Shown: one piece after another, positions 1 to 53,400 of the stretch | How the letters are laid out: every line of letters begins with the position of its first letter | Numbering within the stretch: position 1 is the first letter of the stretch | From: Chiloscyllium plagiosum | Lineage: Eukaryota | Assembly (NCBI RefSeq): GCF_004010195.1 | Contig: NC_057713.1 | Span: forward strand, 89,049,770-89,113,769 | Length of the DNA stretch: 64,000 nucleotides | Direction: 5' to 3' | Position numbers and translations under genes: made by a program | The notes under the pieces: generated by a model | What the model saw: only the letters and a program-made list of their open reading frames with translations | Told to the model about the DNA's origin: nothing | Database searches by the model: none

Positions 1-409
1 GAAAGCAGTTTTAGCAGTTTTAGTAAAGTAAAAGTTGGAAACTTTCAAGAGGTGATCACACATGAGAGCAGAAAAGAAGGTAGAAAGGAGGTAAGATGGT
101 TAGTCCTTTTTAATAAAAGGATAATTAAAGCAGATTTAGCTTGGGGACCTGTGGCAGTACTAGAAGAAAGAGAAGCTTGAGATAGCCAAAAAGGAAATTG
201 GGTGGTCAATGCTTTAGCAGTAGGCTCACTGGTGAGTCTTGTGGACAAGAAGAGCTCAGAGTGGGCATTGTGGGTGAAGGTAGTGGAGAGGTATGGAATA
301 GGGGGTTAGGTGACAAAAAGCAGCAGATAGGACGATCTCAATCTATGTGACCAACATGCCCATGGACTCCTTTCAATTGCACTTGGTGGAGACAAGGGTG
401 GAATAGACT

Positions 410-635
410 AAAGTCAAAAAGTATGGTGCTGGAAAAGCACAGCTGGTCACGCAACATCCAAGGAGCAGGAGAATTGACATTTCGAGCATAAGCTATTCAT
501 CAGGAATGTCATGCTGAAGAGCTTATGCTCAACATCAGCTCTCCTACTCCTCGGATGCTTCTTAACCGGCTGTCCTTTTCCAGCTCCACACGTTTTGACT
601 CCGATCTCCAGCATCTGCAGTCCTCACTTTCTCCC
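410..635. mobile_element. Short fold-back PLE-derived element (family A) with degenerate hammerhead motifs
   Basis: Arms gtgctggaaaagcacagc... and ...gctgtccttttccagctccac are imperfect reverse complements. One-sided tail gatctccagcatctgcagtcctcactttctcc. Flanked by tgga(a/t)tagact at 399-409 and 636-646. Confidence 0.7.
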
Positions 636-1466
636 TGGATTAGACTGGAGAAAGGTTTAAGTAGAAGATTTGCTGTTGAGAAAAGGACCTAGGTTTTTCT
701 TTATTTCAGGATCATCCTGAAGTATAATGAGCAATTTCAATGGGGTGCTGACATCTAACCTGATCTGGTAATGAATGGCTATACCCATTGTCCACCCTAT
801 CTATATCCCTGTCCTTATGGAGCACAGCAGTCAGAGTGAGAGAGAGTACAACGATTTCACTAAGAATTGGAGCATCAATTTTGAAGGTGATGGTATGTTA
901 GATGCAACAAAGTTTATTTTTGAGACTGAGGCTAGACAGTTGTATTTTTTTAAAAATAATTTTTTGTCAGGTAGATTTAATGCCATAGGCTGGAGTGGGT
1001 AGATGAGAGTGGACAATGATCTAATGGAGTGATCAGAAATTGCCTTACCTATGTTTGATATGATGACCGCATTGAGGGGGTGGTGATGAATATAGGCTGT
1101 GGTGTTTTACATGGAGGGAGAAATTAAGAAGGCAATGAACTTAGAAGAAAACATGAGTGGAGATTGAAATTGCTGAGGCTGAGAAACCACTTCAGGCAGA
1201 GGATAAAGGATGGAAGCAGTGAAAATATCTTGGTGAGAAAGCTGTAATGGTACATGGATGCTCATCCGGCAAAGTCCCAAGCTTTAAGGGAACAGATCAA
1301 GACGTGATCCGATAATGAGTGCAGAGGAGAGAAATGAGCATAGATGTGAAGACAGGAGTGATGAGGGTAAAATGCAATAATTTAAAGATATTCATGTGTA
1401 CATTAGCACAGTAAAATGAGTTTTGATAAATGTATTTACATAATGCACACTTTCTTTTCCTTGAAG

Positions 1467-7500: not shown

Positions 7501-10500
7501 TCCTATTCTATGAGGTCCACCTGACTGACCTCATTATAACCACTACAGAAACTAATATTACCAAATTTGCATATGACACTAACATAGATGGGCAAGGAAG
7601 TTGCAATGAAGAATTAAGAAATTCATAAATAGATAAGGATAGGTTAGGTAAATGGACCATCTAGAAATGAGTCATTCTTATGAAGAGAGATTGAGCAGCT
7701 TCTGCCTATACTGTGCTGGAGTTCAGAAGAATGAGAGATCTGTTTGAGTTATAAGATGCCAAAAGGTGATTGACAAAGTAGTTACAGACAGGATGTTTCC
7801 TTATGTGGGATGTTCTAAAATGAGACATCATAGTTTTAGTATAAGGGGTAGCAGATTTAAAATGGAAATGAGAAATGACTTCTCTCAAAGGGTTGCGAAC
7901 TGTAGAATTCACTGTCCAAAAGAGTGGTGGATGCCAGGAAATTGAATACGGTTAAGGAAAATAAGACAGATTTTTAAAATTAGTAATGGGATGAAGTGTT
8001 AATGAAGGTACAGTTGAAGCTAAAATGAGGTCAGCCATGATCATATTAAATGGTGGAGCATGTTCAAGTGCCTGAATTGTCTGCTGCTGTTCCTGCTCCT
8101 AGTTCTTGTGTTCTTGTATTCCCCTAATTCAGGATACAGTCAAGAATTTGTGCAACATCTAAAAACTGCACAAAATACATCATGTGTTTAAATAACATTA
8201 GTTTGAGTTCCTAGTTTAACTGAAGCAGTAAAATGTCATCTTCAGATATTCAAATAATTATTTGCAAAATGATAACGTGTTGGCCCAGAAAATCCATTGA
8301 TCGTATTGTTGTTGCACGAGTGTGAATTGGAGTTATGCATTAGGACCACCTGGAGATCCCCACAGGGCTGACTCAGTGGAAATTGAAATTTCCTTGGGGA
8401 ATTGACATGTGTTTAGAAACCACCAAAAACGTCCCCAACTCCAGGTAGAGAGTTAGAGATTTTGGAGGGCTCTGACTGACTAGAGCTTAATAGTTATCCA
8501 CAAAACCTGCTGTTAAACTGTTAAGTTGGACTCTAATTCTCTATGTGCAAACATTACACCCACCCACACCACACATACCATATTAACAAAGGGAGATCCA
8601 ATTAAAAGATAGACTTAGAGTCATAGAGATGTACAGCACGGAAACAGACCCTTCGGTCCAACTTGTCCATGCTGACCAGAAATCCCAACCTAATCTAGTC
8701 CCATCTGCCAGCGCCCGGCCCATATCCCTCCAAACCCTTCCTATTCATACACCCACCTAGATGCCTTTTAAATGTTGCAATTGTACTAGCCTCCACCACT
8801 TTCTCTGGCAGCTCATTCCATACACACACCACCCTCTGCGTGAAAATGTTGCCCCTTAGGTCCCTTTTATATCTTTCCCCTCTTACCCTAAATCTATGAC
8901 TTCTAGTTCTGGACTCCACTACCCCAGGAATAAGACTTTGTCTGTTTACCCTATCCATGCCCCTCATGATTTTATAAACCTCTATAAGGTCACCCCTCAG
9001 CCTCCGACACTCCAGGGAAAATAGCCCTAGCCTATTCAACCTCTCCCTATAGCTCAAAGCCTCTAAAGAGAAAATGAGGTCTGCAGATGCTGGAGATCAG
9101 AGATGGAAATGTGTTGCTGGAGAAGGGTCACCCCTCAGCCTCCGACACTCCAGGGAAAACAGCCCTAGCCTATTCAACCTCTCCCTATAGTTCAAAGCCT
9201 CTAACCCTGGCAACATCCTTGTAAATTCCTTCTGAACCCTTTCAAGTTTCACAACATCTTGTCGATCGGAAGGAAACCAGAATTGCATGCAGTATTCTAC
9301 TTCACTTGGCTGATTGGAATTTCTGGGCCATGTTTTATGAACTGTTCAGAAGAATGAGAGATCTGTTTGAGTTATGTTGCAGTGGAGTAGAATTTTCCTT
9401 GGTTAAAACTTTCAGAAGTTCAATTTTCTTTCTCACGCTATTTCATTTACAGGATTTGGATGCTTTTGATGTTGGGCTGCATGGAAGACACAGAATAGAA
9501 ATTGATGAATTGTTGAAAGTGGCTGGGGAGCAACTAGCTATAATTGAAGGCTATGCTAATGATTTAAAACGCAGTGGGAAACCTTATGAATCAATCCAAA
9601 AAAGGTAAGGAAAACTGCTTTGAGTTAAAAACTGAAATATACTGGAAATCTTGTTCAGTCACACAAGGATGTGCTGTTTGCAGCCTTATGCCCTACTCCA
9701 CTATTCACTGATCATGGTGGAGCTCTTGCTCGATTATGTGTCATTCCAAACCTGTTAAAATGTTCACAAAAATCTTGTGATGTATAACAGAAAACGTTGT
9801 CTAGACAAAGCAAAATTTGGGACTTATTATGTAGAATTTTACGATCTCTCGCAGGCTGTTTTGAAGGTGATGGAAGGGGATGATAGTTTGTAAAATACAG
9901 CGTGTGTGTTAACTGCTCATTCCTGACCTGTCTCCCATTTTAAGAACGAGAAACTGGTATGACTGGGCTAACAATTATTACACCTCCAATTGGCCAGCAG
10001 CATTCTAAGGCAGGAGTTTCCCCCAAAAGGGGCATGGAAATCTAATCCTTATGCAAGTAAAGCCACATTGTCCATCCACCAACGTTTTGGGCAATGAGAC
10101 AGGAAACCCCTTTCACTATGCAAAAAATATATTGAAGACTTTAAAGTTTGAGGTTCAAAAGAAGTAATTTATTTTGCATTGATTGAAATAAAATGATCCT
10201 TTAATACACTGTCTTTAAAAAAACTGATATAGATATCCCCCGCTTTCCCAAAGCAGAACATTCCTATGAAACATTTTGTAAACCAAAATGGCGTAAAACA
10301 AAGAAGCATTAATTTATATTGGAAAAATTTTGCCATTTTTTGTAAAAGCAAAAATCCTCTTTGGATTGCTTTTGTTTAGCAAAAAAGGTACCAATGTAGG
10401 TCTTTCATAAAAGCCAAGTGGCGTAAAACAAATTTTCGAAAAGCGGGGGATACCTGTACACTGTTTCAAAATGTGACAAGTCAGAGTGTAGGTGTTTGAT

Positions 10501-13500
10501 TTAGCACAAACTTCAGTAGCCCAACACACTGTAATGAAACAAAATACTGATAGTTAAGTGAATGCCAAGCAACAGGAAGAGAAAATGTTATGCTATAACT
10601 TTAGGAAGATGACCTTTGACGTACTTCATTTTGTGAAACAAATCCTACATTATAATTAGATGATTTATTAGTATTAAAAGAAAAATTGCACTGGAAAGAT
10701 TTCAATGCATACTATGTTTTTAATAAATAAACTAGTTCCGATCTCCTTGTTGGTCCTCCTCTCTCTGTCCCTACCCTACTTTCTTTATCCCTTTTTGCCA
10801 TTACTGTTAATGGTTGTTATCCAATGGGCTATTTCTATCAATATAAGAACTAGGTGCAGCCCCTGGAGCCTGCTCTGTCATTTAACATCATCATGGTTTA
10901 TCTCATCCTGGCATCAACTCCACTTTCCTGCTCATTCCCCACAACTCTTCAAACTGTTGCTTGTGTCCCCGTGTCCACCACAGTATAGCATAGTGACTTC
11001 CACAGACTCTCGACCCTTTTGAGAGAAGTAAATTGTCCTCGTTTCTGTTTAAATCAGCCACTCTATGACCTAAAACTTTTGAGGTTTTATCCTAAATTGC
11101 CCCACAAGTGGAAACATCTTTTCTGTCTGCTTCATCAATTTCTTTTAGCATCTTTTATACCTTAAGTAACCACCTTTATTATCGTAAATAGCTCAATAAT
11201 GAATCTGAATGATAAAACTTTGAAATTTTGAAAGCTATTTCTTCATAAACCTTTTGCCCAATAATGAATGCTGTCGTGATAGAACCCAAATAGACTTTGA
11301 GGTCATAATGATTGATACACAATATCAGGACAGTTTTACAGCCCAAGACAGATTTGCTGTGGTTCTGTTTGCCGAGCTGGAAATATTTGTTGCAAACGTT
11401 TCGTCCCCTGGCTAGGCGACATCATCAGTGCTTGGGAGCCTCCTGCGAAGCGCTTCTATGATGTTTCCTCCGGTGTTTATAGTGGTCTGTCCCTGCCGCT
11501 TCCGGTTGTCAGTTTCAGCTGTCCGCTGTAGTGGTTGGTATATTGGGTCCCGGTCGATGTGTTTGTTGATGGAGTTTGTGGATGAATGCCATGCCTCTAG
11601 GAATTCCCTGGCTGTTCTGTCTGGCTTGCCCTATGATAGTAATTTTGTCCCAGTCGAATTCATGTTGCTTGTCTGCATCAACTAGCCACGAAACGACACG
11701 ACCAGCTATCCTTAGTAGCCACACACGCAGACAACAAGCAACATGAATTCGACTGGGACAACACTACTATCATAGGGCAAGCCAGGCAGAGAACAGCCAG
11801 GGAATTCCTAGAGTCATGGCATTCATCCACAAACTCCATCAACAAACACATCGACCTGGACCCAATATACCAACCACTACAGCGGACAGCTGAAACTGAC
11901 AACCGGAAGCGGCAGGGACAGACCACTATAAACACTGGAGGAAACATCAAAGAAGCGCTTCGCAGGAGGCTCCCAAGCACTGATGATGTCGCCTAGCCAG
12001 GGGACGAAACGTTTACAACAAAAACTTCAGCTCGGCGAACAGAACCACAGCAACGAGCACCCGAGCTACAAATCTTCGCACAAACTTTGAACAGATTTAA
12101 CTGTACAGAGTATAAGAAAGATCATGGACGTGAACCTTTTAAAAAGGATTCTCTTTAGCCAGGGTCCAATATTTAGTTTTGAATTAACACTAATTATCTC
12201 AGTTCTGTATCTTGTTATGCTGCTACATCATATTGTTAGAATGTTTACTGGTATTCTAACAATCTTACTCCATCCCTCTGACAGTCTGTTTAAGATAAGG
12301 CAATCATTGTAGGAGAGATCCAATCTGTCAGACTGTGATACAACTTATCAAACGTTGGTTGGTAGGACAAAGTTTAAAAATTCCAACTCAAAAAGCTGCT
12401 GGGTGGAGATTTACTTCACATTTTATTTCCATTGCATGCTCAGCTTTTTCTAATTGAACTTACTATTAAATTTAGTTGCCAGGACAGGACGATGTTGGAT
12501 GACCTCAAATTACTGACGTAATCACAAATTAGTTTCAAATCAAAGTAATTATGGAAATCCAACAATAAGCAGGGTTAACAGAAAATAAACTGGGCCACAT
12601 TGTTGTTTATTTAGTTTTTCTAGTGTTGGAAGTTGATCTGCATTGTGATAACATGACTATCTGTTGTTGCCCTGTTTGGGGCCAATTTTAACTCCCCTCA
12701 CTTAATGAGAATAGAAAACTAGTTTAGATAAAGTAAAATCTACTTATCAGCCTGAGATAATGCCTAGTGATATCTTGCATAAATTTTCAAATCAGCTGAG
12801 GCTCCTGCTACAGTTGAACAAGAGCATAATTTAAATTTATGATCTCATCTTGGTGACAGTGTAGTAACTGGACAACGTGGAGATGAGTGAGATTTAAAAG
12901 AAATATCAGTTGAGTTCTTTAGGAGGATGTGTAATTAAGTTATCCTCAATCCTCTCTTTGCTTGGCCCTGCCAGGCAATCTCTCTTATCAACATGTTATC
13001 ATCCTATACCAAAGCCCCTTTACTGCTTCATAACGTTTTACACCTAGAAAGCAAAGATGAAAATTTGAATCCACAAAATTGCTGGAATAGTTTAATCCAC
13101 ATAAGATTGATATAGATAATGCAATTTAAAAACTAAGAGTGGAGGATCAGTATGATAATTTGTTGGTGTCCTCTTCAGCTATTTACTGATTAGTATTCAC
13201 TATCTTCAAAACTCTGTGCAGTGTGAATTTCCATCGTAATCAAATGCGTGCCATTTCAAAAGCAATCACTGAACGAATGGTTGACCGCACCAGGACATTA
13301 AGGTCCCAGAGATCCAAAAGATCCTGGGATGAAGGGCTCTCAAGATCAACTAAAGAGCTGTTCAGTTGGTTACATCAGCAGAAGGTAAGTCTAATTGCAG
13401 CATTAAAACATTTTGAAATACTTACACAATAATGAAAAGGGGAATTAGCATTTTTGTATTCAAGGTTTTAAATTAGTATTTCTTTTCACAGTTTTCTGTC

Positions 13501-23400: not shown

Positions 23401-26400
23401 AGGCACTGGCCTGTATCTGATTTGTTGCATGTTATTATTAACAAACGGCAACTTTGTCATGGCTCAGTTTGAATGGTGGTGTTTGTTGGAGGAGGGAATT
23501 AGAGAAATCAAAGCACTTAACCTTGTGGGTTGTTACTTTTGTTCACGTGCTTTCTGGAATGTTCTAACATGAGACATTAGCCAGTATTCAACTATATAAC
23601 TGCTCAACACTTTGCTGTAATGCAGTGGTACGTTTTCAAGAGTATGTGATCATCTGTGACCTATTTCTTCTCTTCACTTTGCTTTTTGTTTATGATACAT
23701 GTTTTCTTTGTTTTAATTTGGCAGAAGGATAAAGAAAAAATCCATGAATATAAAAGACAGGTGTCAAACTTGGTAAACAAATCCAAGAAAATAGTACAGT
23801 TGAAACCACGCAATCCCCTGATTAGTGCTGATCAGCGAACTTCAAACCAAATCGTTCTCAAGGCTCTTTGTGACTACAAACAGGATCAGGTACAGTTTCT
23901 GCTGAGCATTTTCCTAAATGGCCCTGTCAGTTCAGTCAGTTTCGAAATCTTGAAAACAACCATTGCACAGTGGGATTTCTGTTTTTAAGTGATGAGGTAC
24001 TGACTAGTGGATTATATTTGTAATAAATTAAATGACAATGCTTTATTGTAACTTTGAGGAAATGTATTTGATTTACGCGGTTAACATAAGCCATTGGAAC
24101 AATACAGAGGAGGTGGTGCTGGACGTCTTAAAATGCATAAAGGTGGATAAATTCCTAGGACTTGATCAGATGTACCTTAGAACTCTATGGGAAGTTAGGG
24201 AAGTGATTTCTGGGCCCCTTGCTGAGATATTTGTATCATCGATAGTCACAGGTGAGGAGCCGGAAGACTGGAGGTTAGCTAGTGGTATCACTATTTAAGA
24301 AAGGTGGTAAGGAAAAACCAGGGAGCTATAGACCAGTGAGCCTGACATTGGTGGTGGACAAGTTGTTGAAGGGAAATCTGAAGGACAGGATTTACATGTA
24401 TTTGGAAAGGCAAGGACTGATAGGGATTGTCAACATGGCTTTGTGTGTGGGAAATCATGTCTCACTAACTTGATTTAAGTTTTTTTGAAGAAGTAACCAA
24501 GAGAATTGATGAGGGCAGAGTGGTGGATGTAATCTTTATGGACTTATGTAAGGCTTTCGATAAGGTTCTTCATGGTAGACTGGTTAGTAAGGTTAGATCT
24601 CATGGAATACAGGGAGAACTAGCCACTTGGATATAGAACTGGTTCAAAGGTAGAAGACTGAGCGGTGGTGGAGGGTTGCATTTTAGACTGGAGGTCTGTG
24701 ACTCGTGGGGTGCCACAAGGATTTGGTGTTGGGTCCACTGTCTTTCATCATTTATATGAATGATTTGGATGTATACATAAGAGATATGGTTAGTAAATTG
24801 ACAGATGACTCCAAAATTGGAGGTGTAGTGGACAGGTTACTTTAGAGTACAATGGGATCTTGATCAGATGGGCCAATGGGCCAAGGAGTGGCAGATAGAG
24901 TTTACTTTAGATAAATTTGAGGTGCTGCATTTGGAAAGGCAAATCAGAGCAGGACTTGTACACCTAATGATAAAGACCTGGGGTGTGTTGCTGAACAAAA
25001 ATACCATGAAGTGCAGGTTCATAGTTCCTTGAAAGTGGAGTCGCAGGTAGATGGGATAGTGAAGAAGGTGTTTGGTTTGCTTTCCTTTATTGGTCAGAAC
25101 ATTGAGTATTTGAGTTGGGAGGTCATGTTGTGGCTTTACAGGACATTGGTTAGGCCACTTTTGGAATATTGTGTGCAATTCTGGTCTCCTTCCTATGAAC
25201 AAATTTATAAGAATGTTGCCAGGGTTGGAGGTTTTGAGCTATAGGGAGAGGTTGAATAAGCTGGGGCTGTTTTCCCTAGATCATTGGAGGTTGAGGGGTG
25301 ACCTTTTGGAAGTTTATAAGATCATGAGCGGCATAGATAGGGTAAATAGAAAAGGTCTTTTCCCTCGGGTGTAGGGAGTCCAGAACTCTAGGGCATAGGT
25401 TTATGGTGAGAGGGGGAAAAGTTTAAAAGTGACCTAAGGGGCAAGTTTTTTATGCAAAGTGTGGATGAATTGGACCAATTGGACCCAATTTCTATGCTAT
25501 ACATCTTTATGACTCTGTGAGTCTAAATGGAAAATGTCCAGTCAAAATGAGAAATTCTTGTTGTGTAATTTTAAGCTTAAACTTGAAACTATTCAAATCT
25601 TTCCTCAATACCAGAAAAGTTCAATTTCGGTGTTATCTTTCAATTTACCTTGATTTCCTTTTTGAATTCTTTCCATATTTACTCACTTAAGTGTAAAATT
25701 AACCATGAAAATATGGTGACTTTGCAATAATCAAACAACATAATTAACCTTTTGGATGCGATAACTAAGTAACCAATGTGTGAACTGGACATAACTCAGG
25801 GAAGTTTTGTGGCTTTTTTTTCATGAAATTTTGAGGTCACATTTATACTGAAGTTAGTATCAGTTCAAGGCTGAAACTGCTCTAACTCAGGTTGGATCAA
25901 CTAGGAGAAAATGAGGACTGCAGATGCTGGAGATCAGAGCTTAAAAATGTGTTGCTGGAAAAGCGCAGCAGGTCAGGTAGCATCCAAGGAATCCTGAAGA
26001 AGGGCTTATGTCTAAAACATTGATTCTCCTTCTCCTTGAATGCTGCCTGACCTGCTGTACTTTTCCAGCAACACATTTTTAAGCTCCGGTTGGATCAAGT
26101 CCATTATGATGTTAGTGGCATATATGTTTGTTTGCTGTGCTATCAAATTGTCTAACAGTATCATTCATTTATAAATGCATTCTTTTAAGCTTTATGTTAT
26201 GTCTGTAGTTTTGTTTTTACTTTTTTTGATTACATTAATGGGGAGGTGGTGGCACAGTGGTGATGTCACTGGACTAGTGATCCAGAGTCCCAGACTAATG
26301 TTCGAGGGACATGGGTTCCAATCCAACCATGGCAGATGGTGAAATGTGAATTCAGTAAACATCTGGAATTAGAAAACTGGTCTAATCGCAACCATGTAGT

Positions 26401-29400
26401 CATTGTCCATGTGTTATAAATAGCCACCTGGTTCCCTGTAGGAAAGGTCATTACCAATCTTACCTGGGTCTACTTATACCAACATTTGAGTCTACACAGC
26501 AATATGGTTGACTATTAACTGCCTTCTGAAGTGGTCTAGCCAGCTACTCAACTCAAGAGCAATTATGTTAGCAATAAATGTTGGCCTTGCCAGCAATGTA
26601 CAATACCCATGTACGTATAAAACAAAAGTACTGTACAATTCAATATCTTATGGATTTTGAATTGCCCAGTAATTTGAATAAGCAATTGTAATTAAACTTA
26701 ATTGAAGACTATTTTTAATGCAATCTTAATTATCAAGTGATTGAAATTCAGCAATTTTGAATAGGTGAATAGACTGCATTAGACCTTTTTATGTTAGCGA
26801 TTGAATCATTTGAGATTCAAATTAAAAGTATCTCCCAGGAACCCTTTTACCAAATGTGTTTGGTATAGGTAAATCATAGACTCACTACAGTGCAGCAAGA
26901 GGCCATTTATCCCATTGAGACTGCACCAAACCACCGAAGAATAGCCTACCCATTTCCCATAACTCTTTATCTGCCATGGCAAATCCACCGAGCCTGCGCA
27001 TTCCTGGACACTTTGGATAATTTACCATGTCCAATCCATCTAATCTGCATATCTTTTTGACTGTGGGAGAAAAGTGGATCACACGGAGGAAACTACGCAG
27101 ACTTGAGAGAATGTGTAAACTCCACACAGAAGAGTGCCGAATAGTGGAATGGAATCCAGGTTGCTGGTGCTGTGTGGATGGTTTTTGTTTCCTGTGGTTT
27201 ATTGGAACCAATATGCTTAGGACTTATAAAATGTACTCCCTTGTGGATACTTTAAGGCAATGTAATTTTTAAAAATTAATTTTGTGATAATCCTAATATA
27301 GTAATTCTCTTTGATTCACAACTTTTAGAGGGTTGTTCATCGGGGAGATGAATGCATTTTATTAGACAACAGCCAACGCAGCAAGTGGAGGGTGATAGGA
27401 CCTGGGGGAATGGAAATGATGGTTCCATCGGTTTGTCTTCTCATCCCACCTCCAAATTCTGGTGCAATTGACCTTGCAAACAAGTAGGAAACTCCATCCT
27501 TGTTCCTTTATATGTCACGCTAAGTTTCAAATACAATTTTGGGTGCTTTGTTAATTATTAAATGGTGCTTTTTATGTCTTTTGAATTCAGAATTGATCAA
27601 TACTATGAAGCTATCCTTTCTCTGTGGAATCAATTGTACATTAACATGAAGAGCTTGGTGTCTTGGCAATACTGCATGATGGACGTTGAAAAGATACGCA
27701 GTTGGACCATGTCAGTGGTAAGAACTTCAAAATAAATTTTTATTCCTGAAAGTTTATTTATTTGGAGGAAGTTAATGAAAGTAAATAAGGTAATACATCA
27801 TACAAACATGGCAAAAGTGCATGTCACTCACTCTTGATTTAATGGGAGAGACTGAAGTTCCACATTAGTTGTGTATGGTACCCCTACTGGAGGGGGAAGC
27901 ACCTTTTTCCTAGGGGAAGGAAAGACTAGAAATAGTTATGGATTTGGCTGCGATAATAAAAGGCAAATAATGATAATAATATTAATAATAGGCATACTGT
28001 CAGCACTTGCCATCATTATTGCAGTGAAGCTGGCAGCACCTTCAGGAATCCGAATGAACACAAGGTAAATGCAGAAGTTCAGAGGTTGCAGTTGGGTCAT
28101 CCACATTTACATGGTGCACTATAAAAGTTCCTGGGGCTGCAATCATGATTTGGTGAAAACGTCCACATTTATGCGATTAATCCTACTGTAAAAGTTAGCA
28201 CATTGTGAAACGGGATGTATCTGAATTTTTAGCAATGTGCTAACTTTAAAAAAATACTGATTTGTTATAAAATCCACTTTATAAATACTAACTTTATAAA
28301 AACCACTTTTTAAATGTACTCTTACTACACTGAAAAGCTTACTCTGTTTTTGTGGGACTTTAGATTTATTATCCTGGTAGCAAAAACATATTCTTTAAAA
28401 ATTCTGTCTTTATTTAACCTGTTATCTTAATACAGTCAATTCTACAATTGAACTTTGTTCTCTGAAAATTTAGATAAATAGTAAAGTATTTTAAGTGCTT
28501 TTAACTTCCTNNNNNNNNNNNNNNNNNNNNNNNNNNNNNNNNNNNNNNNNNNNNNNNNNNNNNNNNNNNNNNNNNNNNNNNNNNNNNNNNNNNNNNNNNN
28601 NNNNNNNNNNNNNNNNNNNNNNNNNNNNNNNNNNNNNNNNNNNNNNNNNNNNNNNNNNNNNNNNNNNNNNNNNNNNNNNNNNNNNNNNNNNNNNNNNNNN
28701 NNNNNNNNNNNNNNNNNNNNNNNNNNNNNNNNNNNNNNNNNNNNNNNNNNNNNNNNNNNNNNNNNNNNNNNNNNNNNNNNNNNNNNNNNNNNNNNNNNNN
28801 NNNNNNNNNNNNNNNNNNNNNNNNNNNNNNNNNNNNNNNNNNNNNNNNNNNNNNNNNNNNNNNNNNNNNNNNNNNNNNNNNNNNNNNNNNNNNNNNNNNN
28901 NNNNNNNNNNNNNNNNNNNNNNNNNNNNNNNNNNNNNNNNNNNNNNNNNNNNNNNNNNNNNNNNNNNNNNNNNNNNNNNNNNNNNNNNNNNNNNNNNNNN
29001 NNNNNNNNNNGCCTGACTGGTGATGACGTCTCTGCTGCATGTGAAGATATACCCTTTGACTTAGCACCAGATTCCCACCACAAGAATTCCTAGATCTTTT
29101 GATGTAGCTTTCTTTTGAAGTCAGTGTACAGTACCCTTCCTTTGCCATTGACAATAAGATCCATGCTAATGATCTGTTAGGCTGCAGTGAATCACCTGCC
29201 TCTGTTAGTTTATGGATTTATCTGTAGTGTCAAAAGACCATGTATTCTCTCCATTGTGTGATTGCTCTTAAAATATTTGTGTAAGTAATTTTAAAAAATT
29301 GGAAGATGAGATGGAAATGAAAATGCACAACCTGTTTATTCAACATTTGCAGCTTATGAGAACATTTTTGATCTCATCTCGTGAAGAGCCTGCCTGTTTT

Positions 29401-35400: not shown

Positions 35401-38400
35401 CAGTCAAGTCTTGAGGATTGTTGCCGAATAAAGAAACCCTGGGTTGCAGGTTCATAGTTGTTTGAAAGTGGAGTCATAGGTGGGCCGGGTAGTGAAAAAG
35501 GTGTTTGATACACTTGCCTTTATTGGTCAGGGCATTGAGTACAAGAGTTGGGATGTCATTTTGCGGTTGTACAGGTTTTTGGTTAGGCCACTTTTAAAAT
35601 ACTGCATTCAATTCTGGGCTCCCTGCTACAGGAAAGATGTTGTTAAACTTGAAAGGGTGCAGAAAAGATTTGCAAAGAATTTGCCAGGTTTAAAGGGTTT
35701 GAGCTATAGGGAGTGGATGAATAGGCGGAGGCTTTTTTCCTTGGAGCGTCAGAGGCTGAAGGGTGACCTTATGGAGGTTTATAAAATTATGAGAGTCATG
35801 GATACAGTGAATAGGCAAGGTCTTTTTCCCAAGGTAGGTGAGTCCAAAACTAGAGGGTATAGGTTAGGGTGAGAGGGAAAGATATAAAAGGGACCTAAGG
35901 GGCAACTTCTCAGGCAGAGGGTGGTGCGTGTATGGAATGACCTGCCAGAGGAAGCGATGGAGGCAGGTTCAATTACAAATCTAAAAAGCATCTGGATGGG
36001 TACATAAATAGGATGGGTTTAGAGGGATATGGGCTAAATGCTGGTGAATGGGACTAGATTATTTTAGGATATCTGGTTGGCATACATGAGTTGAACTTAA
36101 GGGTCTGTTTCTGTGCTGTGCATCTCTATGACTCTAAGTCATTGAAGGTTTAGTAAATTAACCAACATACTTGGGCTAATGATGCGATTATATAAGATGC
36201 AGTCATAGAAGATGCGCGTTTTACAGTCAACCCTCCAGATGCAGATCTGGTTGATCTCTCAATCTTTCATTACAATGATTTTGCTTTAATGCTCAGCTGA
36301 CCAGTCTCCACATAACCTCCTCCATGACATTTAGCCTTGCTCTTGCTAGGTACTGTTAATACAAATACCAAAAATCAAAGGCTCTACAGTGTAGGTTTCG
36401 ATATAAGTAACAATATAAGCTATTTTATCTATTCCTTTCCACAGAAAAGAATAAGCATATGGTTCTTAACCTGTCCAATGCTGTTTTACCCATTGCTTAC
36501 AGATTTATTGGTATCTTACAGATATTGTATGTCAGTTGCATTTGAAAGGTTTTCTCAGTTGTAAGGTTTCAAATACAGGACTAACAATGGAAGCAGTGTG
36601 GCAATCTTTTAGCATAAAATGGATTTCTTAATTGTTTATCAATATTAATCTGTAACAAATTTCAAATCCCCCTCAGTTTAATTATTTCAAGAGCTTTGCT
36701 GACCTTGGAATTCAGCATAGAACATAAATGACCCAAATATGTATTGAGACTATATCTTAACATAATAAAATATTCAGTTGGGACAGTAAAGGATTTAGTA
36801 TTTCTATTTCAAAAGAACAAATTGTTAGCTTCTGAGGTCGTTATTATATTTTCATAACATTCTCATGTTACCCAATCCTCTAAATATGCCACCTCATGCT
36901 CAATTAAAATTCCATGGATGTTGCCATCTCTGATGACTTGACACAATGGCCATTCATACACTGTCAAAATCTGTGTTGGTTGGTCATTTCATTGAGACAG
37001 CTGATGCAGCCAAGCCTAATCTTTCATGCACTTGTTCACTTGCTATAGCTTGCAATTGCAACTCATTGAAATGTCAGTTTCGTTTCCTACCTTTCTCTAG
37101 CCTGGTGATCAAGGGGTTTTCCAATGCCATTAGCATTCTGTCTCTCTCATCCAATCTCAGCACCCCTTTTTTAAGTTGGTGAGTTTCTCATTGATCTCTG
37201 ACAAAATACAATTTCCATTAAACATTTAATTCTCTTTTGTTTGGGATCTCTTTATTTAGTTGCAAATGTATGCTTTTTTTTTGGATAAAAAAGATTGTAA
37301 ACCTTCCTACCAAAGCATCCTGAAACCTAGCAGAAAGTTTTGCTATCATTGTTTTTTTTTAATACATATTTTTCTTCAGATTTTTCAACAGCCTTGAAAG
37401 AAGTGACATAGTTAACATGTATTTTTATAAGATATCAGCAGGCGGTAAACACAAGAGAAATATTCATATATTTGATATAGTAGGATCATTCTCAGGATGT
37501 TAGTTGTAAGGCATAGGATACTGCACAGATCAGTGCTGATCCATAACTATTCACAATCTATATTAATAAATTGGATGTGAATACAATTCTCATATGTCTA
37601 ACTTTGCTGATTTCAAAAAAAACTATGTGGAAGTGGAGGTTGGGAAGAAGATGCAAGGAGGCTTCAAGCAAATTTGGATATCGGCTCAGTGAATGGGCTA
37701 GAACATGGCAGGTGGAATATAATGTGAAGAAATTATCCACTTTGTCAGAAAAATTCAGACATGATATTTCATAAATACTGAGTGGCTGGAAAGTGGTGGT
37801 ACAACAGGACGTGAATGTTCTACTCCGTAAGTCACTAAAAATTAGCACGCAGGTGCAATAATCAATACGAAAGGCAAATCATTGCAAGGTGATTTGAGTA
37901 CAGAAGTAAAGATGCCTTTAGCAGTTGTATAGAGCCTTGGTGAGACCACATCTGGAGTATTGTATTTGCAGTCTTTATCTAAGAAAGGATATACTCACTA
38001 TACGTGTGCAACATATGTACAACATACTCATCCCTGGGATGATGGCATTGTTTTATGAGAAGAGATTATGGAAACTGAGCTTGTATTCTCTGGAACTTTG
38101 AAGAATAAGAGATTTAAACTTACAAAATTCTTACAAGGAATGACAAGGTAACCATTGGTAGAGCAGTTTGCCAGCAAGGGAGTCTATAACCAGGGGACAT
38201 AATCTCAGAAAGAAGGATAGGTCATTTAAAACTGAGATGGAAAGAATCTCTTCACCCAGGGGGTGGTGATTTGTTGGAATCTCCGACCTCAGAGAATGAG
38301 AGAAAACAAAAATTGATAAATTTCTGAAGAATATCGTTGCATCTTTTGATGTGTTTCGTATGGGTATGCGGCAATCTAATTGAATGTTAATGCAGGCTCG

Positions 38401-44400: not shown

Positions 44401-47400
44401 AGATGTCTCCTGACTATAGCCCCTAACTTCAGTCTAAGAGCAGCCAAAATGTGGAGCCTCATAGTGTGAATGGCCTTCAATGGTGTTTCATCAGGATTTG
44501 TACCAAAGTTCTAGTGAAAGATCAGGAAAAGCCCAAAGAAATTCAATCCCACTGTTAGCATTTTCCAAGTTAAGCAGCTTATGTCAGATTTCTTTTCCAC
44601 ATTGCTCTGTTATGCTTCCATATACTTTATTTCTGTATTTGAAAGATACCATGGAATCATTTTCTATCAGCTATATGATGGTCATCAAGTAAGATATTAC
44701 GACTAGTTGTTAAGCATTTGTTTGTAGTTGTTTGTACAGCCTTCATGTTTTCTCAACTAATTCATCATTTAGATCATTAATTTTAAAGGGCGAACACCAA
44801 TTAAACCTATTGGTATTATATGTAAGTTAATATTCACCAATTCCTCATACTTTCTAGTGAGAAATTAATGAGATAAATTTTCTTCTGTATGTGCTTGTGT
44901 TTGGACAAAAAGGATCATCTGGGTGTAGTGCAGAGTTAAGTTCTGAGGTGGAATGTTTGTCCATAGTAGAACCTGTTTGATATTCTATTTACATATTTAA
45001 TAAGGTGTGAACTCAGCAATGACATCATCTCCATTCACATTTCCCAGTGTACTCTTTTTGAGTCCATGCTCAAATGCACATTGATCAGGCTGGCCTTTTG
45101 TGTCATTATTGATTTTCATTCCATTCAGTGAAATTTCCATGTGGCAATTTTCACTCTGGACACAGGTGGCAAACTGGATAATGTACACCAATAGTCTTGC
45201 ATACCTCTTCCAATTTCTAGTTCATTTGTGGAAAGGAAAATCAGACCGGGTGTATCGTATCTGAGTCGAGAGTGTGGTGCTAGAAAAACACAGCAGGCCA
45301 GGCAGCATCCAAGGAGCAGGAGAATCAACGTTTTGGGCACAAGCCCTTCAGCAGGAATCTGTATAGTATCTGTCTGCATGCAAAAGTTGGAAATTGAGTT
45401 CAGAATGGTAAAAATGTGCTGCTTTTCCATTACTTGTGGTAGTTTATGTTACAGATAAATGTCATGTCCACATAAATCAAGATTAGATCATCCAGGCCTG
45501 GTGTAACGATGGGGTGCCAGTGTTACTTGCCACTTAGGTGCCAAGCTATAACCATGTCCAACAAGAGACAATCTAACCATCTCTCTTTGATGTTGAATGG
45601 CTCTGCTATCACTGCATCCCCCATTATCAAAGTTAAAAATCACACAACACCAGGTTATAGTCCAACAACAGCATCTCCAAATCATCCCCCATTATCAGCA
45701 TCCTCATAATTGACCAGGAAACTGAAGAGAAATGTGTGTTTTTTTTTAAAATAAGTACATTCGCTAAAAATAGTAGATCAGAATCTATAAATCCTGCCGC
45801 AAGTAACTCACTTCCTAAATTCCCAAAGCCTCTCCACCATCCACAAGACCCAGGTCAGGAGCGTGATAGAATTCTCTCCAGTTGCCTGGATAAGTTCAAC
45901 TTTAGTAACACTTTGGAAGCTTGACACCATCCAGAACAAAGTTGCCCCTCTTGATTGGCACCACATTCACTTCTACTCTACCTCCAACATACAATGTGTA
46001 CTATCTAAAGATCCACTGCAGTAAATCGCCTTTGACAATAGCATCTACCACCTAGAAGGACAAGGACAGGAACATGGAAACACCACCACATGTGAGTTCC
46101 CTTTCAAATTGTTCAGATCCATTCTTGATGGAACTATATCAGCAATCCTGCACTGCCACGGAGTCATGATTCCTTTCTAGTGGCACTAAGGGTGTACCTA
46201 CCACCCCTTTCTAAATGCCAGCCATTTAAGTCACTCACACATTCTGTGACAAAATAAAGAAAACTATTGATGACTATACATGTATAAACATAATTCTTTA
46301 TTTATTTCATTAGTCCATGTGTTTAATTAAGCTAGCTTATTTTTAATCCTTCAGTTAATTTATTTCACCTTCTTTATGTTTATGTATGGGTGGCACTTTG
46401 GTTGATGTTCTGCAATCGAAGCATGTGGATGTTTGGGGGATATTGTGAGTCAATGTTTCCGTCTTGGGAAACATCATCTCAGAGGTGCAGACAATGCATG
46501 ACATTGGGGAATGAAAGCGCTTTCTGAAAACGATTCCCAGCATTCTAGGGGCATGTTTGGAGCAGAATGAGAGAGGAATATTATTTTTAAAAAGATTTAA
46601 TAGGCCAGTTTGCAGAGATATTCCTGCCTCCAGCACTTCTACTGGAGGTGACTTCTGAGTGGTGGCAGCAACTCATGCATTAGTGATGGGAAGCCAATAA
46701 GTGAATTACTACGGGACACCGGTTCAAGGTGCGAAGGGGAAGTTTAAAAGAGATGTGCAAGGCATGTTTTTGACACAAACAGTTTTGAGTGCCTGCCAAA
46801 GGAGGTGGTGGAAGCAGACACAGTAGCAGCATTCAAGAAACACCTGGATGAATACATGAATAGGAAGGGAATAGAGGGATATAGATCCTGTAAGTAAGGG
46901 TAGTTTTAATATTGAAGGTCAAAATGTGTCAGCGCAGTCTGAAGGGCCAAAGGGATTGTTCCTGTGCTGTTTTGTTCTTTGTTCTTTATTCTTATTATCA
47001 AAGTGATTAGTAGACGGAAAGCTGTGGAATGTTACCTATGGTGCATTGGACTGCATGCAGTGTTTGCAGTTGTGCAGGAAATTGGCACACCATGAGATGC
47101 ATTTGTGGTGATTAGACAAATGTTTTCGATGTTGCTTATCACTTACATCAGTGATTGTGCTGATGAAGCAGTTTCTGATCAAATCAGCAATATGGTGTCC
47201 TTGTCTTGTGTTGCCGTCTCCTTCTCCAATTCCCTCAGCAGCAGACAGCATTCATGTTCGGTTTGCTGGCTGACCTTTAACATGCGTGTTCTGATTGTCT
47301 TTCCAAATCTTCAGGCTGTCTGCTATTCCTAATTAAGGGTCAAATAAGAAGCAGGAGGATGCCATACTAACCTTCAAACCTGCTCCTTGACCAGATTCCT

Positions 47401-50400: not shown

Positions 50401-53400
50401 ATGCTGAAGAATATGGAAGAAGTAAAGGTGAATTTTTATTTTTCTGTTCCGGGAAAGTTAATATTCATGTTGTAGCTGTTCTTGAAAATAATGAAATATT
50501 GATGTCTGTTTTCAAATAGGAAGTAAAAGTATTAAATTTATCCAATATATTCTCATGTCATTTTAAAAGCTGAACGTATTTATTATTTGGACAGCCTTAA
50601 CTATTTGCTCTCAAAATATATCTAAGGTTATAAATGTAAATAACTTTTTAGTTTGTTGAATTTATGTTTATATTAAAGATGTAGGATACAAAGCAAAATA
50701 TCACAGGCCACTTCCATCTAATTTTAATTATACAGATAAAAAACACAAAAATAGAACTTTTGGAAGAGGCACTTAAACATGCCCAAGATGAGAATGCTGA
50801 TAGTGTTCAGCAGAAGAGGTTTCTTGATCAACATTTGAGCCAAGTTCAAACTGAGTATGCAGACTTCAGGAAAAGAATTATGGTCCTCGAGGAGCAGAAG
50901 AGAAATGTTGAATTGGACCGTGATACCATCAAGCAGAGGGAGGACTCGTACCTTCTCCAAATAAAAGAAATCCATGAGAAGATTACAAAATTGACACTTG
51001 AAATTGATGAGGAAAGAAGGAAGAGAAAAGCAGCTGAAAATTGGTATGATCAGCAAAAGAATGAACATGACAGTGCTTTCCGAATTAAACAAAAGGAACT
51101 GGATGAAATAGTGCTGATAAAATTGGAGATTGAGAAATCAATCAAAGACAAAGAGAGAGAGCTAGAAAAGCTTAAGAATGCATTTCAGGAAGAGTCTTTA
51201 AAAAGGAGACAGTTTGAAAGTGAACTAGATGAGCTTAGGGTCAAGTATGAGCAGGAAAACAGGATCTTAAAGTCACGGGTTGAAAGAGAGGTTCATGAGA
51301 GAGAAACTATAGTTGAAAGGTTAACTATAAAAAAGGAAGATGATATTGCAACTTTGAAAATTCAATTGGAGAAAGCTCTGAATGAGAAACGGAATCTCAT
51401 GGAAGAAATAGAACGATTAAGAAGCTCTATCAGAGAAACTGAATTCAATAGAAAAAAGGCAGAAAAGGATTCTTTGCAGCAGAAGTCAGCTTGTATTGAG
51501 GAATCTAGGAGGAGAGAGGAACTTGAAAGAGAATTTCAAACACTCACAAAACTTAAAACTGACGAAACACTGAGGCTTAAATCACTTCAGCAGGATACCT
51601 CCAAGGCTATCCAAGACAAAGGAAAGGAGATTGAAAAGCTAAGAATTTTATTAGAGGAAGAAGTCAATAAACGGAAACATTTAGAAAATGAAAATGATAA
51701 ATTAAAACAACAGCAAATTGATTTTCAGAAGAAGGACACAGAAAAACTTACCAAACTTAAAACTACAGAACAAGAGATTACAGTCATAAAGGTAGAACGT
51801 GAGAAAGTATCCAGAGAAAGATCTAAGTTGCAACAAGAGGTTGAACGTTTGCAAAACAATATAAGGGAAGCAAACAATGCCAAATATAAGATTGATGAAG
51901 AACTAATACAATTAAGAAGGAACGTACTTGAAGAATCATCAAAGCGAAAGAGGGCTGAGGAAGAGGCTGAGTGCCTTGAACAAAAATGCAAGGATCATAC
52001 ATTCTCAATTACTCAGCTCACAGAACAAATTAATCATATCTCAATCATGAAGAAAAAAGTTGAAGATGATCTTTCCAAACAGCAGAAAGCTTTTGACCAG
52101 CAGCTGAAAGAGAAGAATATTAGCACAGGAGAATTGAATAGACTGTATGCTGATGTTGAAACATTGCGTCGCCAGTTGAGTCAAGAGCAAGAAAGTACAA
52201 GACAGGCTTGTCAGAGATATGAACATGTCCAAAAAACTAGTGAAGAAAAAACCAAGGCTTTGAATGAGAGTCTAAGTGAAATAGACAGACTGCGTTCGGT
52301 TGTCGAGAACCTCACAAAAGAACGACTGAAGCTGGAAGAAGAGTTGAGAAGTTTGAAGTCAAATTTTGATGATTTTAAGAGATTCAGAGATGATGCAGAA
52401 GGTGATAAATCAAGAACCATCTCTGAATTGAGGCAGCAACTTGAACTAACATACAAAAGAACCACTGACCTTCAAGGGCTAATTAATGAGTTAAAGAATG
52501 AAAGGGAAAAATTGAGACTGGAAGTTGAAACATTCCAAAAGCAGGCTCTAGAGGTACATGCAAGTTTTACTGTTTTATCATGTGAAGTATTTTCTATTAG
52601 TCTTATTAACAGTGTTTACTGTGTTTTTAAAGAAAATGTCAAAGCTAATGTCATTCACTTCTTTGCAGTATTTCAGATATTCTTAGTTGGGTATTCTTAA
52701 TTGTGGGAGAAAGTGAGGACTGCAGATGCTGGAGATCAGAGCTGAAAATGTGTTGCTGGAAAAGCGCAGCAGGTCAGGCAGCATCCAAGGAGCAGGTGAA
52801 TCGACGTTTCGAAGAAGGGCTCATGCCCAAAACCTCGATTCTCCTGCTCCTTGGATGCTGTCTGACCTGCTGCGCTTTTCCAGCAACATATTTTCTACCC
52901 ATAATTGTGGACATGAATTGAAGCAGAATTTCTGAAGTTCCCTAATCTAACATGAGTGATTGATAAAATGGCTGCATATATAATTCCCCCGTGGTTTCCA
53001 TTAAAATTACTAGAGACAATGACTGACTTTCTACAGTAGTTATTGCTACTTACTTCCAAGCTTAGAGGATAATGGAAAATACAGAGGTTAACATTTTGTT
53101 TCAGATCTTAAAAATTGCATTAAGGCAATTGCGAATTAACTTCAACATTATGTGTAGGGATTTGTTATAAATTTGATTATTTCACAAATGTTGATCCATA
53201 TGTCAGCAAAATGCAATTTTAAAACCAGTCAAGTGAATTTAAATGCTATATCTGAACAAATGCTGTTATTTGGGCAGAAAATCATCAAAACCTTCAGGGA
53301 ATTAGCACAACTAATGCTGTTCAATTCAGTTGGATTCAGATGATCTATTTCCAAGGTTTCAATGAGATTGGAGACTCCCACCAAAATGATCAGATTCCAG

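Follow-up and report, generated by a model that had tools for sequence, protein, structure and literature searches.

For Penelope-like elements (PLEs), published work already describes a layout that joins a forward 3' end and its tail to an inverted, 5'-truncated copy and places minimal hammerheads on the two opposite strands. In the available portions of the papers cited here, an inverted 5'-truncated copy near the 5' end and a tail of 30-40 bp at one end are given as typical of PLEs (PMC8557442), the inverted pLTRs of rotifers carry TSDs of 8-10 bp (PMC3846280), and minimal hammerheads occur in pairs on opposite strands, 100-700 bp apart (PMC4209133). The minimal hammerhead type of PLEs combines the core with an extra base between positions 9 and 10.1, G10.1-C11.1, a long helix II and a palindromic 15.2-16.2; helix I measures 4-5 bp in the Schistosoma families, and no cleavage was observed for a single minimal hammerhead (PMC4209133). 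In the anole, the Poseidon protein cuts and extends both strands with a preference for ATT, and RT starts at two sites bounding the tail; the Poseidon ORF starts at stem II with the cut site 26 bp from that start, and the hammerhead requires its protein (PMC11167929).

The insertion analysed here follows this layout and lies within a window of 64,000 nt, the whole stretch of DNA examined, from the bamboo shark Chiloscyllium plagiosum (Table 1). It is a genuine, TSD-bounded event in the shark genome. The best explanation, in which as a whole we have high confidence, is a dead-on-arrival, 5'-truncated PLE insertion in a desmoplakin intron that is neutral or nearly so and whose parent family is an abundant Penelope/Poseidon-type retrotransposon of bamboo sharks. 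The insertion spans 11348-12098 and is bounded by two 8-bp direct repeats (ACAGATTT), an 8-mer whose chance of occurring at a given site is 3.5e-5. This TSD includes ATT, and the flanks of the insert have 35-36% GC. The two inverted arms are identical in 311 of 328 alignment columns, differ at 14 places (11 substitutions and indels of 3, 2 and 1 nt) and share a longest perfect run of 78 nt, with a 50-nt spacer between them. A one-sided tail of 37 nt is carried by the forward copy and absent from the inverted copy; both outer ends of the insert are element 3' ends, one tailed and one tail-less, inside the 8-bp duplication. CpG o/e is 0.69 in the element and 0.25 in the window. The arms, spacer, TSD and abundant CpGs recorded in an earlier note on this DNA are thus all borne out, as is its TATAAA near 11927, present by motif scan and mirrored at 11481 on the minus strand. 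In the available text of the respective sources, the Drosophila virilis Penelope promoter is TATA-less (PMC2377424) and a putative TATA is present in a rotifer pLTR (PMC3846280).

Table 1. Features of the insertion and its flanking exons (positions within the window)
Feature	Position	Strand	Remarks
Upstream desmoplakin exon	9453..9604	+	P0028 mapping
TSD, left copy	11348..11355	+	ACAGATTT, 8 bp; last 2 bases overlap inverted arm
Inverted, 5'-truncated, tail-less PLE 3' end	11354..11676	-	2-nt deletion causing frameshift, plus 3-nt deletion
Antisense minimal type I hammerhead	11392..11431	-	core and 3-bp helix I both intact; cut predicted after 11395
Mirror TATAAA	11476..11481	-	motif match only
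Inversion junction	11676-11679		at most 1-3 ambiguous bases; loose contig ends before 11679
C-terminal half of PLE GIY-YIG endonuclease and ORF end	11676..11996	+	106 aa + stop
Spacer / hairpin loop	11677..11726	+	50 nt; plain forward-element sequence
Right arm, within forward copy	11727..12053	+	private or minor bases 11786, 11814, 11936, 12015
TATAAA within coding frame	11927..11932	+	candidate promoter motif
Sense minimal type I hammerhead	11977..12016	+	helix I mismatch at 12015; predicted cut after 12013
Two ATGs, start of stem II	11983..11988	+	putative next-ORF start in tandem, by analogy with Poseidon_Ac
PLE tail, one end only	12054..12090	+	37 nt
TSD, right copy	12091..12098	+	ACAGATTT; unique contig of organism B begins exact match here
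Downstream desmoplakin exon	13222..13384	+	P0028 mapping

The coding remnant ties the insertion to its family. The open frame comprises 107 codons including the stop, within a stop-to-stop frame (11643-11996) without Met, and its TAG (11994-11996) straddles the last stem II pair and the loop of the sense hammerhead, in agreement with the earlier description of a 107-codon frame ending by its TAG in stem II. The encoded 106-aa peptide has 10 relatives among 134 candidates. The best, 87% identical, is a bamboo-shark ORF bearing RT, and nine of the ten come from Chiloscyllium, Hemiscyllium or Stegostoma. The tenth, P0009, is a protein of 705 aa with an RVT_1 match above the Pfam cut-off (34.1 bits) and a GIY-YIG match below it (16.9 vs 22.6 bits, E 0.008). 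RT lies upstream of the segment matching the window peptide in P0001, P0003 and P0009, and by alignment the peptide begins past both halves of the GIY-YIG motif and covers the second half of the nuclease only. The suggestion that the frame encodes part of a PLE endonuclease has therefore held up in the similarity check, which matched it to RT-bearing ORFs and to the second half of a GIY-YIG nuclease, and a derivation of the insert from an EN+ Penelope-like element is supported at the level of sequence. By inspection, the RT-EN linker of the same three proteins has no extra Zn-finger cysteines, which would fit Penelope/Poseidon rather than Neptune or Nematis, of which an extra linker Zn-finger motif is described as a feature in the available text (PMC8557442). 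Pfam returned no match for the 106-aa peptide and one weak, unrelated match for the other of two window peptides searched, and a PDB search with P0009 gave two chance matches and no relative.

A tblastn search with three PLE proteins found no other ORF parts in the window, its matches being confined to the nuclease end and to the two arms, so the copy is non-autonomous. The remnant is 735 nt long, with no RT and half a nuclease, and a full ORF and a tandem pLTR are absent from the locus. A MITE or other TIR DNA transposon was considered and rejected on the one-sided 37-nt tail and on arms consisting of PLE coding sequence; a non-LTR retrozyme was likewise rejected, there being a single hammerhead per strand and not at least two same-strand tandem units. 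No account of this PLE family or locus was found in the literature covered, repeat databases and most subscription papers falling outside its scope.

The host gene is desmoplakin on the plus strand; the insert sits in its intron at 9605-13221, with 1.7 kb separating it from the donor and 1.1 kb from the acceptor. A long ORF at 59956 has plectin repeats; among its relatives, P0028 (84%) is the closest with full coverage. The top PDB matches of P0028 are human desmoplakin structures, and P0028 maps onto the plus strand exon by exon, its residues 1-106 having no match within the window. The placement in DSP intron 3 proposed earlier accordingly stands as far as a desmoplakin intron is concerned, through the P0028 mapping and the PDB matches, while its number depends on an assumed exon: we take one exon to lie upstream of the window, as in human DSP, and the two flanking exons are then presumably exon 3 and exon 4 by human numbering. 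Searched by regular expressions, the element proved free of donor-like sites, strong acceptors and poly(A) hexamers. The single AG of the loop (11684-11685) has 13 of 21 pyrimidines, against 10-17 at 20 candidate exon acceptors that were picked automatically, at least two of them wrongly; as a cryptic acceptor it was rejected, 28 of 110 intronic YAGs scoring as well. Desmoplakin output is very probably unaffected by the insert.

As to how the inversion arose, we lean slightly towards priming from both staggered nicks (8-nt stagger). The element nuclease would make a staggered cut in the AT-rich site, each nick would prime cDNA from one of two internal start sites, and both cDNAs (about 320 and 410 nt) would stop early and be joined head to head. 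In the family, copies terminate at 12089-12093 and 11 RNA reads stop near 12049, positions that correspond to the tailed and tail-less ends of the insert. The 2 bases shared by its left end and the TSD are consistent with a primed end. A tentative alternative is that one cDNA folded back, or an antisense template primed itself, with the arm then copied and nuclease resolution producing the tail-less end. Head-to-head PLE junctions have been interpreted as products of self-priming (PMC3846280) and the tail has been ascribed to nuclease resolution (PMC8557442), in the available text of both, and a strand running antisense and then sense round a 50-nt loop suits the layout, as does the shared source lineage of the arms. 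Against this, the junction shows no palindrome or priming stem, about one base being shared relative to the family majority; the tail-less end recurs in the family, in the 11 RNA reads, at what is an RT start site in vitro in the portion of the anole study available (PMC11167929); and the 2-base overlap with the TSD is what a primed end would leave. Priming from both nicks may reach beyond this locus. That head-to-head shark PLE inserts record two-ended priming on RNA of one lineage, with arms born nearly identical, is a proposition to which we give somewhat less than an even chance; if true, the many bamboo shark copies would serve as an in vivo test of the PLE inversion mechanism and would provide an LTR-like clock by which insertions could be dated in a lineage that mutates slowly.

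The age and source of the insertion were approached by comparing four of 24 listed runs over 11677-12800 only, that is, over one arm and the right flank, with organism A being the species of the window and organism B a related organism (run X10). Contigs on this region number 9,832 in X3, 17,417 in X5 and 15,906 in X10, summed contig depths not being equivalent to copy numbers; they show many unrelated AT-rich continuations after 12091, and in each of the four runs family sequence extends past 11679 in the upstream direction. In organism B, the match of a 1726-nt contig starts exactly at 12091 and is preceded by 434 unlike bases. This is the pattern that an empty site in organism B would give, the 434 bases being the putative left flank; the contig carries no insert beside this flank, although organism B holds many family copies. 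In X3 and X5, which come from two studies, contigs start within the tail, by 20 and 25 bases respectively, and continue through the flank, which fits a filled site in organism A at overlaps below the 31-base bridging rule and, in X3, at a depth of 3.8; either run could itself be the source of the assembly.

Of the 18 variant rows listed inside the arms, 12 show an identical base in the two arms (among them the minor G at 12050), 5 show different bases, and at the remaining one the left arm is deleted; because of the 12 shared bases, the arms are taken to derive from a single source lineage. At four of the five differing rows among those listed, the left arm has the base of the family majority, and the right-arm bases at 11786, 11814 and 12015 are absent from 97.6-99.97% of family depth. 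Subfamily bases are rare in organism B, with the G at 12050 at about 1% and the C at 11933 at under 1% of depth. Arm divergence is 11/322 or 3.4% (95% CI 1.7-6.1) and that of the flank between the two organisms is 23/710 or 3.2% (Fisher p=0.85). The arms also differ at 12027, a site polymorphic in the family (an extra C in 43 of 85 RNA reads), so that copying from two templates, or errors of the RT, may account for some of their divergence. If the arms were born identical, the insert would be about as old as the split between organisms A and B and far older than standing diversity, which is 0.002 in the epaulette shark, where the mutation rate is 7e-10 per generation in the available text (PMC10587355). 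At that rate, 1.7% per arm corresponds to about 2e7 generations, a figure to be read as "not recent" given a tenfold-wide rate interval and CpG effects.

The insertion is therefore only moderately young. The earlier description of it as young survives insofar as it postdates the split from organism B, which is partly supported by the contig of organism B without the insert, and is weakened by an arm divergence close to that of the flank. It is unlikely that the insertion is very recent and still polymorphic, with arms that were unlike from the start as products of two RNAs or of error-prone RT. A perfect TSD, a CpG o/e of 0.69, the absence of the insert beside this flank in organism B and the rarity there of its subfamily bases are what such an insertion would show, but the right-arm bases at 11786, 11814 and 12015 are missing from nearly all family depth, the left arm carries additional changes together with two deletions, and neither X3 nor X5 data show an empty allele.

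The long dsRNA anticipated in the earlier note, a candidate ADAR or Dicer substrate, is strongly predicted by the fold of the pre-mRNA, at -632.6 kcal/mol against -206.2 +/- 5.3 for 15 shuffles. During transcription the arms would pair over about 320 bp, with uninterrupted stretches of up to 78 bp; ADAR would probably edit the resulting duplex, and the intron would then be spliced out and degraded. By analogy, editing of the hairpin is likely because pre-mRNA inverted repeats are the main ADAR substrate in animals: in the available text, they are the chief editing substrate across animals, the elephant shark included, and palindromic repeats are heavily edited in the frog (PMC5625713). In RNA run X21, of which 2% was read, 427 of 12,955,460 reads fall on 11677-12800, none of them beyond about 12130 and none on the locus-unique flank, and they carry the family bases at the private sites of this copy. 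Their changes (A>G 12, T>C 8, G>A 23, C>T 19) follow the same pattern as is seen in DNA.

It is very unlikely that the hairpin has been recruited to regulate desmoplakin in a lineage-specific way, whether by editing, by small RNAs or by a slowing of splicing. The predicted duplex is very stable, the insert is apparently present in both same-species datasets, and the heavily edited palindromic repeats of the frog offer a parallel in the text available (PMC5625713). Yet the arms have diverged as much as the intron flank has between organisms (Fisher p=0.85), each arm difference breaks or weakens a pair, the splice sites are 1.7 kb and 1.1 kb away, and the lone AG of the loop is unremarkable, being equalled by 28 of 110 intronic YAGs. 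Were the hairpin to regulate desmoplakin, that would be of greater weight than the insertion itself; nothing in the data points there.

The hammerheads share the architecture of the minimal PLE type. In both, the core, an extra base after position 9 and G10.1-C11.1 are present, stem II has seven pairs with one mismatch, and helix III is a loopless 2-bp palindrome (15.2-16.2). C3 is at 11980 (+) in the sense hammerhead, whose extra U is at 11987, stem II at 11988-12005 and G12 at 12006, and at 11428 (-) in the antisense one; desmoplakin being on the plus strand, the observation that one hammerhead is sense to the DSP pre-mRNA proved correct. That both are intact did not: helix I has 3 of 3 pairs in the antisense copy, where its 3 bp are shorter than the 4-5 bp of the Schistosoma families, and only 2 of 3 in the sense copy, which has a private A at 12015; across the family, G stands there in 98.8-99.9% of contig depth (three DNA runs) and in 94 of 98 RNA reads. 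Rfam gave no match in the window at gathering score, and at E up to 10 the region 11300-12150 gave six weak matches, none to a hammerhead; these microRNA and lncRNA matches were set aside as far below the cut-offs and accounted for by the hairpin. The free MFE of the hammerhead fragments is no better than that of shuffles (z -0.59 to 0.69), a motif scan of the window found no second same-strand copy of this hammerhead family, and RNA ends pile up nowhere on 11677-12800 among the 427 family reads, a small sample. Two ATGs are found at 11983 and 11986, the cut site lying 28 nt from the second.

The probability of the sense stem II is 6e-28 in the full pre-mRNA fold and 0.95 in a 59-nt fragment. 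In context, 42 sense-hammerhead bases pair with the left arm at a mean probability of 0.97, and without the left arm the probability is 0.01 for the sense stem II and about 1e-6 for helix I. The masking of the sense ribozyme proposed earlier is therefore predicted, but of a ribozyme that is broken and is predicted to remain unfolded even when the arm is removed. With helix I broken and lone minimal hammerheads inactive or protein-dependent, there would be little activity to mask, and the sense ribozyme, as modelled, almost certainly does not cut. A protective role of the inverted arm, which would mask an active sense ribozyme and so keep it from cutting the desmoplakin pre-mRNA, is in our view highly improbable. 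In its favour, the core nucleotides are intact and the pairing of 42 bases with the left arm is strongly predicted, but the private base at 12015 breaks helix I, a loopless 2-bp helix III needs a second same-strand copy of which the window holds none, monomers are inactive (PMC4209133) and the anole hammerhead protein-dependent (PMC11167929) in the available text, and the hammerhead fold is not predicted even after removal of the arm. The locus is thus an example of a hammerhead core match that is not equivalent to an active ribozyme.

An assembly or chimeric-read artefact is barely credible: such structures do trouble assemblies in the available text (PMC8557442) and both the left junction and the inversion junction lie outside the region covered by reads (11677-12800), where no strand-change joint is among the 15 joints listed. 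From a fold-back chimera one would expect arms without differences and no TSD. Here the arms differ at 14 places, each has private changes at sites where its counterpart retains the base of the family, and the whole is enclosed by an 8-bp duplication.

The window also contains three palindromes of family A (near 404-646, 25890-26098 and 52698-52909), which the earlier note had linked through this insertion to coding PLEs. A tail at one end only is found in all three aligned palindromic copies, a relaxed hammerhead core match in two of the three, and their direct repeats are clear in two cases (11 and 8 bp) and weak in one (6 bp). The likeness of layout was thus upheld, while blastn detected no sequence similarity between the insert and family A beyond two 19-nt chance matches (E 0.48), and the tie of family A to coding PLEs would be an analogy of layout, already supplied by the literature.

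By itself this copy matters little: its layout is known and exists in very many copies, and inverted repeats are frequent in introns. It serves well for teaching, as one locus combines the two termini, the tail, the TSD and, in a relative, a likely empty site. Shark copies examined genome-wide could separate two-ended priming from fold-back. In LINE-1 twin priming, both target nicks prime and an inversion within one TSD results, a different part of one RNA being inverted; here, the same 3' segment has been copied twice.

Compared with the available descriptions of other systems, the insertion resembles the inverted PLEs of Drosophila virilis, Adineta vaga and Schistosoma mansoni in its truncated inverted copy, its one-sided tail, a TSD within their 8-10 bp and an opposite-strand hammerhead pair, and differs from them in the lack of a palindrome at the inner junction and in its setting, a desmoplakin intron of a shark (PMC2377424, PMC3846280, PMC4209133, PMC8557442). 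With the frog Harbinger repeat it shares a long self-contained duplex, a short loop and the expectation of being an ADAR substrate, but its origin is a retroelement and not a DNA transposon (PMC5625713). Like the non-LTR retrozymes, whose repeats are intronic in about 42-44% of copies in two Xenopus species, it is PLE-derived and non-coding with a type I hammerhead; theirs are same-strand tandem units that can form an active dimer, whereas here the pair is head to head (bioRxiv 10.64898/2026.07.22.740005). Relative to Poseidon_Ac of Anolis carolinensis, as far as the available text describes it, the shark copy lacks RT, half of the nuclease and a direct pLTR or tandem, and its sense hammerhead is damaged, while the distance from the cut site to the second ATG is 28 nt here and the corresponding distance 26 bp in the anole (PMC11167929).

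The bases that the studied Penelope (PLE) copy has at 12050 and 11933 are common enough in organism A, which belongs to the same species, and make up approximately 1% or less of the depth in the related organism B. This distribution suggests a subfamily whose expansion followed the split of A and B. Variation within the family is also seen at 12027, where an extra C, shared by the left arm of the insertion, occurs in about half of the PLE family RNA reads and alters the frame that begins at the two ATGs (11983 and 11986) opening stem II of the sense hammerhead.

Over 12071-12800, the flank contigs from DNA run X5 of organism A are identical to the window, and the contig from its run X3 differs at 11 of 730 letters. 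The depth of the X3 contig is 3.8, and its mismatches are therefore either errors or the mark of a divergent haplotype.

Other features of the window (positions in the window)
Feature	Position	Strand	Remark
Desmoplakin coiled-coil ORF	50685-52700		671 aa
Assembly gap	about 28510-29010		500 N run, within desmoplakin intron
Third hammerhead-core match	near 56852	minus	5-bp stem II
Decayed repeat fragment	8612-9067		LINE-like reading frames
Decayed repeat fragment	24973-25464		LINE-like reading frames
Decayed repeat fragment	35406-36140		LINE-like reading frames
Family A element	404-646		palindromic
Family A element	25890-26098		palindromic
Family A element	52698-52909		palindromic
Family A fragment	near 9068-9125
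Family A fragment	near 45259-45359

The small family A palindromes carry a tail on one side and have degenerate hammerhead cores, with direct repeats 6-11 bp long. They probably represent 3' ends from another PLE-like family, older than that of the studied copy. The third hammerhead-core match is unrelated to the studied insertion, and the three LINE-like fragments are 72-82% alike. The coiled-coil ORF is missing from the desmoplakin relative P0028, whose alignment skips from 50430 to 59956, as expected of a short splice form.

Four shark gene models end in the PLE nuclease segment, and are named as a 5'-nucleotidase domain protein, MAP3K7, CUEDC2 and an uncharacterized protein (P0004, P0007, P0008 and P0010). 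These shared endings point either to exonisation of the PLE family or to artefacts of annotation.
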